A stretch of 6,905 nucleotides of DNA. It comes from a virus. Lineage: Duplodnaviria; Heunggongvirae; Uroviricota; Caudoviricetes. The stretch's first letter is position 1. Every line of letters begins with the position of its first letter. The position numbers and the translations under genes were made by a program. This document shows, piece by piece, positions 114 through 6,905 of this stretch. The notes beneath the pieces were generated by a model. It ran no database searches. It worked only from the letters and a program-made list of their open reading frames with translations, and was not told the DNA's origin. The stretch lies in the IMG/VR virus record IMGVR_UViG_2526164632_000019; one strand, given 5' to 3'.

Positions 114-302
114 ATGGAAACGTTATTACCAAACGTTAATACGTCTGAAGGTTGTTTTGAAATTGGTGTCACTATCAGTAACCCTGTATTTACTGAAGAT
201 GCCATTAACAAGAGAAAACACGAACGGGAGTTATTAAATAAAATATGCATTCTTTCAATGCTGGCCCGTTTACGTCCGATACAAAAAGGATGCTGGCAAT
301 GA
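114..302 (+). CDS. Small hypothetical protein (62 aa) in the prophage early-left region. The reading frame is open back to the window edge, so it may instead be the C-terminus of a longer gene starting upstream of the window.
   Basis: ATG at 114 preceded by GAGGA (102-106) at about 8 nt spacing; stop TGA at 300-302 overlaps the ATG of the next ORF (ATGA overlap). Same strand as the downstream prophage genes. No recognisable motif. Confidence 0.4.
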   Translation: METLLPNVNTSEGCFEIGVTISNPVFTEDAINKRKHERELLNKICILSMLARLRPIQKGCWQ

Positions 303-490
303 ATACAGCATTTGCACTTGTTCTGACAGTTTTTCTTGTTTCCGGAGAGCCAGTTGATATTGCAGTCAGTGTTCACAGGACAATGCAGGAGTGTGTGACT
401 GCAGCAACCGAACAGAAAATTCCCGGTAACTGTTACCCGGTCGATAAAGTTATTCACCAGGATAATAACGAAATCCCGGCAGGTCTTTAA
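299..490 (+). CDS. Small hypothetical protein (63 aa) with a hydrophobic N-terminus (MNTAFALVLTVFLVSG), possibly a signal peptide or membrane anchor, and two Cys residues; common small prophage protein type.
   Basis: ATG at 299 overlaps the stop of the upstream ORF (translational coupling); AGGA at 286-289 upstream. The hydrophobic stretch followed by a polar region with two Cys is read directly from the translation. Start choice between 290 and 299 is uncertain. Confidence 0.5.
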   Translation: MNTAFALVLTVFLVSGEPVDIAVSVHRTMQECVTAATEQKIPGNCYPVDKVIHQDNNEIPAGL

Positions 491-582: not shown

Positions 583-3054
583 ATGAGTAAAGTCTTTATT
601 TGCGCCGCCATTCCGGACGAACAGGCAATAAAGGAAGAAGGTGCAGTCGCTGTAGCCACTGCCATTGAAGCCGGTGATGAATGTCGCGCCCGCGCAAAAT
701 TTCACTGGCAATTCCTGGAACATTATCCGGCTGCTCAGGACTGCGCTTATAAATTTATTGTCTGCGAGGATAAACCTGGCATACCCCGCCCTGCCCTCGA
801 TTCATGGGATGCTGAATATATGCAGGAAAACCGCTGGGATGAGGAGTCTGCTTCTTTTGTCCCGGTTGAGACTGAATCCGATCCGATGAACGTCACTTTT
901 GACAAGCTGGCCCCTGAAGTACAGAACGCTGTCATGGTTAAGTTCGACACATGTGAAAACATCACCGTTGATATGGTTATTAGCGCACAGGAATTGTTGC
1001 AGGAAGACATGGCAACATTCGACGGACATATCGTTGAAGCGTTGATGAAAATGCCAGAAGTTAACGCCATGTATCCGGAGCTTAAGTTGCACGCCATTGG
1101 GTGGGTTAAGCATAAATGTATTCCTGGTGCTAAATGGCCCGAAATTCAGGCAGAGATGCGCATCTGGAAAAAACGTCGCGAAGGTGAACGCAAGGAAACC
1201 GGAAAATACACGTCTGTTGTTGATCTCGCCCGCGCCAGAGCCAATCAACAGTACACTGAAAATTCAACAGGAAAAATCAGCCCGGTCATTGCTGCCATTC
1301 ATCGCGAATACAAGCAGACATGGAAAACACTGGATGACGAACTGGCCTACGCTCTCTGGCCTGGTGATGTGGATGCCGGAAACATTGACGGCAGCATCCA
1401 TCGCTGGGCAAAAAATGAAGTTATCGACAACGGCCGCGAAGACTGGAAGCGTATCTCGGCATCAATGCGCAAACAGCCTGATGCCCTTCGCTACGACCGC
1501 CAGACTATTTTTGGCCTTGTCCGTGAACGTCCGATCGACATTCACAAAGATCCCGTAGCACTGAACAAATATATCTGCGAATACCTGACGACAAAGGGCG
1601 TGTTTGAGAATGAAGAAACAGACCTGGGCACTGTTGATGTTCTCCAGTCATCAGAAACACAAACTGATGCAGTGGAAACTGAGGTATCTGATATCCCAAA
1701 AAATGAAACCGCGCCGGAAGCTGAACCATCTGTAGAGCGTGAGGGGCCGTTCTACTTCCTCTTCACCGACAAGGATGGCGAAAAATACGGTCGCGCAAAC
1801 AAACTTTCTGGTCTGGATAAGGCGCTGTCTGCTGGGGCTACTGAAATCACGAAAGAAGAATATTTCGCCCGCAAAAACGGTACATACTCAGGTTCACAAC
1901 AAAATACTGGTGCATCTGACACGACCGCACAACCAGGGCCGGTAAAAGTTACCGCTGACGAAGTAAACAAAATTATGCAGGCAGCCAATATCAGCCAGCC
2001 TGACGCCGATAAGTTACTTGCTGTATCGCGTGGTGAATTTGTTGAGGGGATTAGCGCCCCTAATGATCCGAAATGGGTCAAGGGGATCCAGACTCGCGAT
2101 TCTGTGAACCAGAACCAGCATGAATCGGAACGGAACTACCAAAAAGCGGAACAAAACAGCCCAAATGCGTTACAAAACGAGCCAGAAACGAAACAACCTG
2201 AACCAGTAGTGCAACAGGAACCGGAAAAGATCTGCACCGCCTGCGGTCAGAGCGGTGGCGGCAACTGCCCTGATTGTGGTGCGGTGATGGGTGACGCAAC
2301 ATACCAGGAAATATTCGATGGAGAGAATCAGCCTGAAGTTCAGGAAAATGATCCGGAGGAAATGGAAGGCACTGCGCATCAGCACAAGGAGAACACTGGC
2401 GGCAATCAGCATCATGCCAGCGATAGTGAAACTGGCGAGGCGTCAGATCCCTTAATTAAGGCGAACGGTCATCATAATCTCACATCCACCAGCAGAGCGG
2501 GGATTCATCTGATGATCGACCTTGAAACCATGGGAAAAAATCCCGATGCCCCGATTATCTCAATAGGTGCAATATTTTTCGATCCGCAAACCGGAGATAT
2601 GGGACCGGAATTTAGTAAGACTATCGATCTGGAAACTGCTGGCGGAGTCATTGATCGGGACACCATTAAATGGTGGCTTAAACAATCACGCGAAGCGCAA
2701 TCTGCCATTATGGCCGATGAAATCCCGTTAGATGATGCACTGTTACAATTGCGGGAATTTATCGACGAAAACTCCGGTGAATTTTTTGTTCATGTCTGGG
2801 GAAATGGAGCCAACTTCGACAACACGATTTTGCGCCGTTCATACGAACGGCAGGGGATCCCCTGCCCGTGGCGTTACTACAACGATCGCGATGTACGCAC
2901 AATCGTTGAGCTGGGGAAAGCCATAGACTTCGATGCCAGAACGGCTATTCCATTCGAAGGTGAGCGCCATAATGCACTTGATGACGCCCGTTACCAGGCA
3001 AAATACGTTTCAGCTATCTGGCAAAAACTGATCCCGAGTCAGGCTGATTTTTAA
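583..3054 (+). CDS. Prophage multidomain nuclease (823 aa): uncharacterised N-terminal domain, acidic linkers, CxxC-x8-CxxC zinc knuckle, and C-terminal DEDDh (DnaQ-like) 3'-5' exonuclease domain. Probably the type of protein often annotated as exodeoxyribonuclease VIII-like in lambdoid prophages.
   Basis: Uninterrupted 2472-nt ORF with GAGGT RBS about 8 nt upstream of ATG 583. C-terminal motifs read from the translation: Exo I MIDLETMG (D646, E648; nt 2518-2526), Exo II HVWGNGANFD (D746), Exo III HNALDD (H796, D801; nt 2968-2985). Zinc knuckle CTAC...CPDC at residues 551-566 (nt 2233-2280). It sits immediately upstream of xis-int, where lambda exo and Rac recE lie. Confidence 0.85.
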   Translation: MSKVFICAAIPDEQAIKEEGAVAVATAIEAGDECRARAKFHWQFLEHYPAAQDCAYKFIVCEDKPGIPRPALDSWDAEYMQENRWDEESASFVPVETESDPMNVTFDKLAPEVQNAVMVKFDTCENITVDMVISAQELLQEDMATFDGHIVEALMKMPEVNAMYPELKLHAIGWVKHKCIPGAKWPEIQAEMRIWKKRREGERKETGKYTSVVDLARARANQQYTENSTGKISPVIAAIHREYKQTWKTLDDELAYALWPGDVDAGNIDGSIHRWAKNEVIDNGREDWKRISASMRKQPDALRYDRQTIFGLVRERPIDIHKDPVALNKYICEYLTTKGVFENEETDLGTVDVLQSSETQTDAVETEVSDIPKNETAPEAEPSVEREGPFYFLFTDKDGEKYGRANKLSGLDKALSAGATEITKEEYFARKNGTYSGSQQNTGASDTTAQPGPVKVTADEVNKIMQAANISQPDADKLLAVSRGEFVEGISAPNDPKWVKGIQTRDSVNQNQHESERNYQKAEQNSPNALQNEPETKQPEPVVQQEPEKICTACGQSGGGNCPDCGAVMGDATYQEIFDGENQPEVQENDPEEMEGTAHQHKENTGGNQHHASDSETGEASDPLIKANGHHNLTSTSRAGIHLMIDLETMGKNPDAPIISIGAIFFDPQTGDMGPEFSKTIDLETAGGVIDRDTIKWWLKQSREAQSAIMADEIPLDDALLQLREFIDENSGEFFVHVWGNGANFDNTILRRSYERQGIPCPWRYYNDRDVRTIVELGKAIDFDARTAIPFEGERHNALDDARYQAKYVSAIWQKLIPSQADF

Positions 3055-3112: not shown

Positions 3113-3316
3113 ATGAGCAGCTTATTTTTAACCGAAGATGAATTGCTAATATTAACGGGCTGCAAATATGCAAGCCACCAGCGAAAATGGTTAATGGAAA
3201 ACGGGCTTCCGTTCTATACCAATCGTAGTGGCAAACCGATTGTCAGCCGGGAGCTATTTACCTGCAATAAAACTTTACCACCACGCGAGGTAGAGCCGAA
3301 TTTTGGTGCGATCTGA
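3113..3316 (+). CDS. Small excisionase-like / DUF4224-type protein (67 aa) typically found immediately upstream of lambdoid integrases.
   Basis: The motif LTEDELLILTGCKYASHQRKWLMENGLPFYTNRSGKPIV matches my memory of the DUF4224 pattern. Its TGA stop overlaps the integrase ATG (TGATG at 3314-3318), indicating translational coupling. Confidence 0.7.
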   Translation: MSSLFLTEDELLILTGCKYASHQRKWLMENGLPFYTNRSGKPIVSRELFTCNKTLPPREVEPNFGAI

Positions 3317-4340
3317 TGGGAAGACGAAGGAAAAATCCTGAACACGAAAAATTACCTCCAAATGTATACCCAAATAAATATAGTTATGTATGGAAACCAA
3401 CATCCAGAGAATCTGTAACACTAACCGCCATCAAGGATGGTTTAGCTGCTTTATGGAAAAAGTATGAGGAAACTGTAAATAATCGCGATCGTGCAATGAC
3501 ATTCGGTCGCTTGTGGGAAAAATTCCTCGCCAGCGCCTATTACAGTGACCTCAGTCCAAGAACACAAAAAGATTATCTGCAACATCAAAAAAAGTTGCTT
3601 GCCGTATTCGGTAAGGTGCCGGCAGATTCCATAAAACCAGAACACATCCGTCGATACATGGACAAGAGAGGGGAGCAGAGTAAAACGCAAGCCAACCATG
3701 AAAAAAGCAGTATGTCCCGCGTTTACAGTTGGGGGTATGAGCGAGGGTACGTGAAGGGTAACCCATGTGCAGGTGTAAGTAAATTCAAGGCCAAAAACCG
3801 CGAACGATATGTAACCGACAAAGAATACCAGGCAGTATTAAGCGTTGCACCTCTTCCTGTTTTTATCGCAATGGAAATTGCCTATCTGTGTGCAGCGAGG
3901 GTTTCCGATGTGTTATCGCTGAAATGGGAGCAGATTGGAAACGACGGGATCTTTATCCAGCAAGGGAAAACAGGAAAAAACAGATAAAAGCATGGAGTCC
4001 ACGATTACAGGCGGCGATCGAAAAAGCAAAACAGTTACCAACATCCGCCTATGTAATCAGCAATCAATACGGCAACCGATATATGTACAAAGGCTTTAAC
4101 GAAATGTGGGTAGAAGCAAGAAATCGCGCAGGCAAAATTTCAGGTATTTTAACCGACTTCACCTTTCATGATCTGAAGGCGAAAGGAATTTCAGACTATG
4201 AAGGAAGCAGTCGGGATAAGCAACTTTTCTCTGGTCACAAAACCGAGGGGCAAGTGCTAATCTATGACAGGAAGGTTAAAGTTTCACCGACACTTGATGT
4301 CCCGTTACCTGAAAATATTCCAAGAAAATATTCCAAGTAA
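3316..4340 (+). pseudogene. int: Lambda-type tyrosine integrase with N-terminal arm-binding domain, disrupted by a -1 frameshift in an A6 run (3975-3980).
   Basis: Frame A (3316-3987) ends ...IFIQQGKTGKNR*; frame B continues ...KKQIKAWSPRLQAAIEK... to the stop at 4340. Adding one A to the A6 run would join them as ...QGKTGKKQIKAWSP.... The C-terminal box FHDLKAKG...GHKTEGQVLIYDRK carries the catalytic His and Tyr (Y at 4263-4265). The gene lies next to the tRNA-Ser 3' end. Confidence 0.85.
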
Positions 4341-4392: not shown

Positions 4393-4482
4393 TGGCGGAG
4401 AGAGGGGGATTTGAACCCCCGGTGGAGTTGCCCCCACTCCGGTTTTCGAGACCGGTCCGTTCAGCCGCTCCGGCATCTCTCC
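4393..4482 (-). tRNA. serU: tRNA-Ser, anticodon CGA, 90 nt with long variable arm; integration target of the adjacent prophage.
   Basis: Reverse complement reads GGAGAGATGCCGGAGCGGCTGAACGGACCGGTCTCGAAAACCGGAGTGGGGGCAACTCCACCGGGGGTTCAAATCCCCCTCTCTCCGCCA. Acceptor stem GGAGAGA/TCTCTCC, anticodon loop CUCGAAA, 3' CCA encoded. Matches my recollection of E. coli serU and its position next to mtfA. Confidence 0.95.
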
Positions 4483-5669: not shown

Positions 5670-5862
5670 GCTATGAACGCCATCACCATTTTCCCCTCGA
5701 TTATAAAACTTGAGTTATTCAGTAGTCTCCCCTCTTGCAACTCACACCCAAAACTGCCTAACGAAAAGTTATTAATTTTCAATCATATTGCTATCAGGAT
5801 TTACATTTTTTCGCTGTGCTAGAAAGGGCGCATTTATGTTAGCTCGTTCAGGGAAGGTAAGC

Positions 5863-6905
<1,043 letters not shown>

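Follow-up and report, generated by a model that had tools for sequence, protein, structure and literature searches.

This study was concerned with a prophage protein in which a predicted 3'-5' exonuclease domain follows a 640-residue extension. What is the extension, and what would such a nuclease do for the phage? The protein is encoded by an 823-residue open reading frame (ORF) on the plus strand of the virus record IMGVR_UViG_2526164632_000019 (Caudoviricetes), a stretch of 6,905 nucleotides (nt) that is called the window below. A first-pass annotation made from the letters of the sequence had described a C-terminal DEDDh exonuclease domain, acidic linkers, a four-cysteine knuckle and an N-terminal domain of about 340 residues that it could not place. 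The ORF was found as described, with an ATG start and as the longest in the window, and a profile match to PHROG 2082 covers the protein from end to end. Our analysis makes it very probable that the protein is a RecE scaffold in which the PD-(D/E)XK nuclease has been exchanged for a DexA-type DEDDh nuclease. Its parts, several of them delimited in AlphaFold2 (AF2) models scored by the predicted local distance difference test (pLDDT), are as follows.

583..3054, plus strand: the whole ORF, a RecE-family scaffold with a DEDDh exonuclease, 823 residues
583..882, plus strand: head A subdomain 1, residues ~1-100, small alpha/beta unit with a ferredoxin-like fold (AF2)
895..1257, plus strand: head A subdomain 2, residues ~105-225, helical bundle (AF2)
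1303..1617, plus strand: domain B, residues 241-345, helical, common to the whole RecE family
1738..1878, plus strand: folded mini-domain within the linker region, residues ~386-432, beta-hairpins and helices (AF2 pLDDT ~90)
1990..2217, plus strand: conserved RecE-homologous segment, residues 470-545, containing SRGEFVEGISAPNDPKWVKGIQTRD; for the most part disordered or of low confidence in the model
2227..2295, plus strand: Cys4 zinc ribbon, residues 549-571, CxxC-x7-CxxC at nt 2233-2280, homologous to RecE 518-532 (AF2 pLDDT ~67)
2296..2493, plus strand: acidic disordered linker, residues 572-637
2500..3051, plus strand: predicted DEDDh 3'-5' exonuclease domain (DnaQ-like, PF16473, DexA-type), residues 640-823, with D646, E648, D746, H796 and D801

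The C-terminal exonuclease domain

Both profile and structure searches upheld the DnaQ-like fold. PF16473 (Rv2179c-like) matched residues 642-813 over profile positions 2-177 of 177 (E=1.5e-66), and the score of 223.9 bits compares with a gathering cutoff of 27 bits. The window protein was aligned with T4-type DexA and six relatives. In this alignment D646, E648, D746, H796 and D801 correspond to DexA D7, E9, D119, H186 and D191, and all five are invariant; the residues are exactly those first proposed, and the active site is complete. The AF2 model of residues 380-823 contains a confident DnaQ-like fold at residues ~638-820 (pLDDT 80-93). When this model was compared with known structures by Foldseek, the best PDB neighbour was T4 DexA (8KEL, E=5.9e-9). 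Further neighbours were RNase T, Cap18 and Orn/oligoribonucleases, and the top matches had a probability of 1.0. A PDB-wide search by sequence detected only 8KEL and 8KEN, both T4 DexA (E=6.5e-6), and the Rv2179c structures did not reach E<=1 in that search.

T4 DexA thus belongs to the same Pfam family as the DEDDh domain and has the five catalytic residues in common with it. However, DexA is a stand-alone protein of 227 residues with extra loops, is about 25% identical to the window domain and lacks the 640-residue RecE-type extension. Judged from the sequence, the window protein is likely to have 3'-5' DNA exonuclease activity. DNA would be preferred as a substrate because DexA and EcD, an E. 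coli DexA homologue that is discussed below, are its nearest characterised relatives.

The DEDDh nuclease cassette circulates both fused and free. Stand-alone versions of about 189 residues, 58-60% identical to the domain, lie near an integrase gene, for example in Salmonella phage 118970_sal3 (L062 2495-3064) and on a 43.7-kb E. coli plasmid (L063 2995-3567). The plasmid gene has a PrtN-family activator as its neighbour and rdgC upstream.

The RecE-type scaffold

The residues ahead of the nuclease are related to RecE. BLASTP against RecE of the K-12 Rac prophage aligned residues 262-625 to RecE 278-591 (E=6e-59), and identity is about 75% over residues 470-625, which include the Cys4 knuckle and acidic linkers. 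PHROG 607 also matches, and the RecE-type non-catalytic region (domain B, the middle segment and the Cys4 ribbon) is present. The NCBIfam RecE equivalog NF007259 matched residues 246-626 only and missed its cutoff, with 273 bits vs 1269. A PD-(D/E)XK domain was not found: the Pfam scan gave no match to PF06630 or PF12684, a phmmer search with RecE 600-866 gave no match to the window protein, and the BLASTP alignment stops at RecE 591. The same boundary is seen in the DNA, where window nt 2174-2456 are about 82% identical to Rac-type recE and the identity ends at residue 625. In protein and in DNA the recE homology therefore ends about 15 residues ahead of the DEDDh domain, and the region around nt ~2456, residues ~625-640 in the last linker, looks like the joint of a nuclease-cassette swap. 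Because the similarity stops at residue 625, we regard the protein as a RecE paralogue whose last linker leads into a nuclease cassette of another type.

The first-pass description of the N-terminal ~340 residues as unplaceable was right in one respect and wrong in another. The AF2 model of residues 1-350, built from a 48-sequence alignment, is well folded (mean pLDDT 90.5; predicted template modelling score 0.52), and structure searches with it returned no informative relative and no solved relative of the fold. On the other hand, the RecE homology over residues 246-626 places the end of this region and much of what follows. The model contains three units, an alpha/beta unit at residues ~1-100, a helical unit at residues ~105-225 and domain B at residues ~245-340, with disorder at residues 222-235. 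Domain B carries the signature TLDxEIAxAL...DxD...RxAKE...WKxWSxALR...YxRxxIF. The mini-domain occurs in a subset of relatives and is gapped in Rac RecE. The earlier descriptions of the knuckle and of the linkers were both borne out. The ribbon cysteines are residues 551, 554, 562 and 565. The segments between the folded parts are acidic, with a net charge of -8 to -13 each, and disorder is predicted at residues ~439-456, 484-547 and 572-637 in the AF2 model of residues 380-823.

The N-terminal module forms a narrow family, since an exhaustive search of residues 1-350 against 1.84 billion representative proteins yielded no more than 170 clusters at E<=1e-3. A set of 64 long relatives of the module includes 24 with Exonuc_VIII (PF06630), 15 with the PDDEXK-like DUF3799 and nine with a Rv2179c-like DEDDh domain. 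A search with residues 1-401 returned only near-identical and mostly partial E. coli copies, and two newer Pfam families, PF27430 and PF27432, appear in the precomputed annotation of homologues. A segment map made with phmmer distinguished two alternative heads, head A (window residues 1-240) and the Rac RecE head (residues 1-275). Both heads precede domain B, which is followed by variable linker elements and then by either type of nuclease, and all four combinations of head A or RecE head with DEDDh or RecE nuclease occur.

Other members of the family show further arrangements. The relative P0124 (901 residues) has a RecE head at 56-233 and head A at 227-388 in tandem, followed by domain B and DEDDh, and may be an intermediate in the shuffling of heads. 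In many head-A proteins (P0126, P0130, P0139, P0147 and others) no nuclease was recognised by the phmmer queries. The head-A protein of Stenotrophomonas phage BUCT708 has 710 residues (L006 3974-6106), and downstream of its gene come a Gp157-family gene and xis-int, in that order. The head-A proteins that lack a recognised nuclease may be the 'RecE-2' proteins of PMC12315714, a survey of lambdoid recombination modules (Genome Research 2025) in which that name is given to RecE relatives with no recognised nuclease.

The RecE proteins of Rac and of Gifsy-1/HK225 share domain B, the middle segment, the Cys4 ribbon and the acidic linkers with the window protein, and their genes lie at the equivalent position of the early-left operon, ahead of xis-int. 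The Gifsy and HK225 proteins also match head A from residue ~136, whereas Rac RecE 1-275 differs from the first ~240 residues of the window protein. The principal difference is in the nuclease, which is a 5'-3' PD-(D/E)XK enzyme in RecE and of the 3'-5' DEDDh type in the window protein. The RecE nuclease domain also contacts RecT. Thus the cassette swap would remove both the 5'-3' activity and the docking of RecT. No function is known for the N-terminal ~600 residues of RecE, and a truncated RecE nuclease domain is enough, genetically, for recombination (both reviewed in PMC11611040).

Association with RecT

We collected 49 loci with a domain B profile (nine-sequence seed alignment) from species-representative Enterobacterales genomes; these sample only domain B of the RecE-head type, and head-A proteins like that of the window are not among them. 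A RecT ORF abuts the nuclease gene in 23 of the 24 assessable PD-(D/E)XK loci, and the exception is frameshifted. In contrast, none of the 18 assessable DEDDh loci has RecT within +-7 kb (Fisher p=5e-11, for loci that are not phylogenetically independent and all belong to the RecE-head subgroup). In these loci an excisionase and then an integrase come next, and no annealase family turned up when a sample of neighbouring ORFs was scanned with Pfam. Individual elements agree. In Rac, HK225, Gifsy-1 and Klebsiella phage phi12.4 a PD-(D/E)XK RecE homologue is followed directly by recT, whereas xis-int comes straight after the DEDDh version in the window, SLK172, mEp460 and Tritos; in the window, recT is absent between the nuclease gene and xis.

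The DEDDh form is very probably not one half of an exonuclease-annealase recombinase of the RecET or Red type. Its chemistry also predicts a polarity opposite to resection in the 5'-3' direction, by which a 3' tail is left for annealing. A genuine RecE-type exonuclease of recombination whose annealase is encoded elsewhere, or a functionless decaying remnant, is hardly credible: the annotation 'exodeoxyribonuclease VIII', the position that recE holds in Rac and the K-12 ydfE pseudogene point that way, but the PD-(D/E)XK domain is missing, the equivalog score is far below cutoff, RecT is absent from all 18 loci and the opposite polarity would remove the very 3' tail on which an annealase relies, while decay is made unlikely by purifying selection, by seven intact variants out of seven and by viable phages (Tritos, mEp460, HannyBb and Stx2a phages) that are described below.

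Two observations were made in passing. A gene for an Rrf2-family winged helix-turn-helix protein is often found just ahead of the DEDDh gene in these loci; it encodes 113-123 residues and lies directly upstream in Citrobacter, Phytobacter and another Enterobacteriaceae genome (L017 5594-5962, L026 5309-5656 and L028 5321-5659), where E. coli has dicB-ydfD; it could be a regulator or a partner. An enterobacterial-type gene with RecE head and DEDDh, followed by xis-int, was also found on a contig of a Veillonella parvula metagenome-assembled genome (L039, JAGZPX010000007.1), which is probably mis-binned.

The prophage locus, distribution and coding evidence

The host element is a Qin/DicB-type, 'Tritos-class' lambdoid E. 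coli prophage at tRNA-Ser(CGA), and its integration site adjoins mtfA and tRNA-Asn. The window includes these neighbouring features.

114..302, plus strand: dicB, cell-division inhibitor, upstream in the same early-left operon (Pfam DicB; SLK172 annotation)
299..490, plus strand: ydfD (DUF1482, annotated lysis protein), directly upstream of the nuclease gene
3113..3316, plus strand: excisionase-like gene (DUF4224), directly downstream of the nuclease gene
3316..4340, plus strand: tyrosine integrase, frameshifted into the overlapping ORFs 3316-3987 and 3888-4340 ('frameshifted' also in the SLK172 annotation)
4393..4482, minus strand: tRNA-Ser (CGA), the prophage attachment site beside mtfA

Strain SLK172 carries a copy of the gene that is 100% identical. 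Its early-left operon reads dicA, ydfA-like, ydfB, ydfC, dicB, ydfD, the nuclease gene, xis (DUF4224) and int, so that the nuclease gene is the last before xis-int in an operon repressed by dicA. No sigma-70-like site for a promoter of its own was found upstream on the plus strand, where counts were below the shuffle mean. A prophage with a split integrase is probably excision-defective, and the neighbouring 823-residue ORF is intact nonetheless.

The window and SLK172 differ beyond tRNA-Asn. In the window a gene that starts MATKKRSGEEINDRQILCGMGIKLRR occupies 5788-6679 and beyond, and it seems to resemble the adhesin yeeJ. Its coding sequence is spread over at least two frames (5788-6138 and 6050-6679), so it may be frameshifted or a pseudogene. 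SLK172 has an integrase and a yersiniabactin island at this position instead. Because this region differs, the window comes from a strain background other than SLK172.

The gene is very common. Of 5426 complete E. coli genomes, 4780 have a match and 3537 (~65%) match at >=80% gene coverage, with a median of two matching places per genome; recE itself accounts for some of the partial matches. An intact copy, with its neighbours in the same order, is also carried by the viable temperate phages mEp460, Tritos, Evi, HannyBb and PhiR42_1 and by Stx2a-converting PPompW phages, and the genes of Tritos and mEp460 are 94-98% identical to that of the window. It is widely annotated as 'exodeoxyribonuclease VIII', and RefSeq also uses 'exonuclease' and, for many copies, '3'-5' exoribonuclease'. 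In K-12 strains the match to the window covers nt 1-1349 with 96.8% identity and then gives way to IS2. The Qin gene ydfE (b1577) of K-12 has the same dicB-ydfD-ydfE order, but IS2 cuts it after ~255 codons and it lacks domain B, the linkers and the nuclease. By sequence, the ORF at 583..3054 is the intact form of this pseudogene.

The coding sequence is maintained by selection. All seven variants taken from other genomes and phages are intact, and each is exactly 823 residues long. The ratio of nonsynonymous to synonymous substitution rates (dN/dS) over these seven was 0.11 in head A, 0.14 in domain B and 0.03 in the mini-domain, compared with 0.36-0.67 in the linkers; it was 0.32 in the DEDDh domain, which is little diverged. 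Thus the folded non-catalytic modules are under purifying selection, and the intact variants together with the dN/dS pattern indicate that the ORF is a coding sequence under selection rather than a chance one. The first-pass annotation had called proteins of this kind functionally unexplored. For the family this does not hold: it is present in most complete E. coli genomes, has left the ydfE stump in K-12, is carried by phage Tritos, the prototype of a published class (PMC12315714), and has a full-length member among the DexA homologues listed in the HREX paper (PMC12153337). No well-characterised enzyme corresponds to the full-length protein.

Chi sites and the Tritos class

Two Chi sites of the same orientation fall in the window.

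2486..2493, minus strand: Chi site (CCACCAGC on the plus strand), within the nuclease gene at the start of the DEDDh domain
3175..3182, minus strand: second Chi site, in xis

Over 23.8 kb of the SLK172 prophage arm, Chi occurs 9 vs 2 times by orientation, where ~0.36 per strand is expected by chance. All nine of the majority sites are on the strand opposite to the early-left genes, and the two in the window (2486 and 3175) are among them. Chi on the strand opposite to the gene has a density of 4.3 per 10 kb in the 18 DEDDh loci vs 2.2 in 21 RecE/RecT loci (p=9e-4). The E. coli chromosome has ~1.1 Chi per 10 kb per strand.

These observations agree with the Tritos-prototype class of PMC12315714, which has a nuclease but no annealase, SSB (single-stranded DNA-binding protein) or anti-RecBCD function, and in which Chi is abundant (21/6 to 7/2). 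The same survey also notes that early-left operons can encode DnaQ-like 3'-5' nucleases, in most cases very close to int. The window holds only part of the prophage, and it is SLK172 and the Tritos gene order, together with strand-biased Chi, that match the class. PMC12315714 classified the module without going into the protein, its function or its make-up as a RecE/DnaQ chimera. Because annealase and RecBCD inhibitor are absent and Chi enrichment is oriented, these phages appear to depend on the host RecBCD-Chi-RecA pathway. A role of the scaffold as a RecBCD inhibitor was considered and judged unlikely, as strong Chi enrichment makes sense only with active RecBCD.

Proposed role and alternatives

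The explanation that fits best overall, which we put somewhat below an even chance, is that a RecE scaffold with a swapped DEDDh domain acts as a stand-alone, RecT-independent 3'-5' DNA exonuclease. The exonuclease would be made on derepression of the early-left operon, and the flexible acidic linkers would tether the nuclease to the scaffold. The scaffold would then place the nuclease on the target that RecE acts on; the likeliest candidates are double-strand DNA ends or a host factor found there. The first-pass suggestion that the N-terminal domain could target the nuclease is a reasonable hypothesis. The function of the scaffold would be independent of RecT, because the same scaffold serves both nuclease polarities, with and without RecT. 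In a final step, which is the weakest, trimming of 3' single-strand tails would produce blunt ends onto which host RecBCD could load. RecBCD needs blunt or nearly blunt ends. This last role, the supply of trimmed ends to host RecBCD-Chi-RecA, is possible but doubtful. More generally, the ~600-residue non-catalytic part of RecE may be a delivery scaffold that is indifferent to the nuclease and independent of RecT. In that case the DEDDh version would have a role of its own, either in preparing ends for RecBCD-Chi in phages that have no recombinase of their own or in a domesticated, modification-sensing exclusion; we advance this tentatively, and think it rather unlikely.

Several other explanations were considered. 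The one that survives best, though it is unlikely, is a superinfection defence of the HREX type. Here the DEDDh domain would selectively degrade incoming phage DNA that contains 5-hydroxymethylcytosine (5hmC), the scaffold would bring the nuclease to the injected ends, and the lysogen would be protected from T-even phages. The study in which the structure of T4 DexA was solved (PMC12153337; NAR 2025) speaks for it. In that study EcD (HAK9828821.1) digested the 5hmC DNA of T4 and not unmodified double-stranded DNA, and plasmid-borne EcD protected cells from T4, even uninduced. The 'bacterial DexA homologues' from which that study argues for a HREX defence in bacteria are given in its Table S3. 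They include WP_162656894.1, which in our analysis is an 823-residue protein in the dicB-ydfD-exo-xis context with 96% DNA identity to the window. Several accessions in the table are also in the same RefSeq number block as WP_000048392.1, the accession of the window protein. The word 'prophage' does not occur in PMC12153337, nor is the 640-residue RecE-like extension mentioned. In addition, the ORF is kept intact beside a broken integrase and in ~65% of complete E. coli genomes, and the stand-alone relatives adjoin int, a typical position for accessory genes.

There are several points against a defence of this type. First, EcD is another protein. Its sequence is homologous to the DEDDh domain and begins at the counterpart of M644, but it was tested as a domain of ~190 residues, with the termini MIDTET...TIPETY where the window protein has MIDLET and IPSQADF, and protection is known only for this isolated domain on a plasmid. 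Secondly, the specificity residues are not cleanly conserved. DexA W152 aligns to Y766, where most relatives have W and W763 is nearby; D169 aligns to A780, with D782 and D784 nearby; and S87, highlighted in PMC12153337, is not conserved in the window protein. The tetramer residue D90, which is A78 in EcD, aligns to D718 and so stays Asp, with A719 adjacent, in a register that may differ from that of the authors' alignment. Because these residues are not conserved, the 5hmC specificity is not simply transferable to the window protein. Third, the gene shows no promoter signal of its own and belongs to an early operon under repressor control, which makes expression in the lysogen doubtful. Lastly, PADLOC matched no defence model beyond a generic CRISPR-associated DEDDh (E=1e-5), and nothing for the N-terminus.

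The primer-derived termini of EcD matched none of the fetched loci, viral contigs or proteins, and the EcD gene was probably codon-optimised. The stand-alone relatives of ~189 residues, from 118970_sal3 and the 43-kb E. coli plasmids, were ruled out as EcD. An internal start at M644 of the window protein was likewise rejected, as the sole purine-rich stretch, GGGGA ~10-14 nt upstream, is an unconvincing ribosome-binding site.

An improbable alternative, built by analogy, is a nuclease of the lytic cycle that would take no part in recombination and would serve anti-defence or host takeover. It would degrade a host nucleic acid that has a free 3' end, for instance the msDNA of retrons, primers, or host DNA to salvage nucleotides in the manner of T4 DexA. 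T4 DexA scavenges host DNA (PMC12153337). RecE degrades retron msDNA in vivo (bioRxiv 10.1101/2020.06.22.160242), so nucleases on a RecE scaffold can meet small DNA. The early operon is shared with the host-directed dicB, dicF and ydfD. However, the neighbourhood points to no particular defence system, and a temperate phage that relies on host RecBCD and RecA is unlikely to degrade host DNA wholesale.

Very improbable is a 3'-5' exoribonuclease like Rv2179c of M. tuberculosis that acts on host or phage RNA. The name of PF16473 ('3'-5' exoribonuclease Rv2179c-like'), the many RefSeq copies named accordingly and the presence of RNase T and oligoribonucleases among the structural neighbours speak for it. 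However, DexA is the best match in both sequence and structure while the Rv2179c structures lie above the E<=1 limit, the E. coli homologue that was tested, EcD, acts on DNA, and the scaffold to which the domain is joined belongs to a nuclease of DNA recombination. RNase T also cuts DNA, which counts against this explanation as well.

Significance

The protein itself is already known in the sense that it is catalogued (RefSeq, PHROG 2082, Pfam labels), ubiquitous in E. coli and touched by two 2025 papers. Three things do not appear to be spelled out in the searchable literature: the RecE scaffold with a cassette of reversed polarity, the strict lack of RecT, and the identity of ydfE and part of the DexA-homologue set as the same protein. 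It is among the commonest uncharacterised prophage proteins of E. coli. It connects the Chi-rich, recombinase-less lambdoid phages with the DexA-like 'HREX' defence nucleases, a link made in neither paper. In particular, the 'bacterial' DexA homologues of HREX include large prophage RecE-like fusions, which changes the reading of that result.

Full-length RecE is the workhorse of linear-linear recombineering, yet for decades its N-terminal ~600 residues have been described as 'of unknown function'. The same scaffold is found with a 5'-3' PD-(D/E)XK nuclease and RecT or with a 3'-5' DEDDh nuclease and no RecT, so its job is separable from RecT and from polarity, and natural chimeras are available for experiments. 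If the delivery-scaffold reading is true, it would give a testable function to the long-unexplained N-terminal region of RecE.

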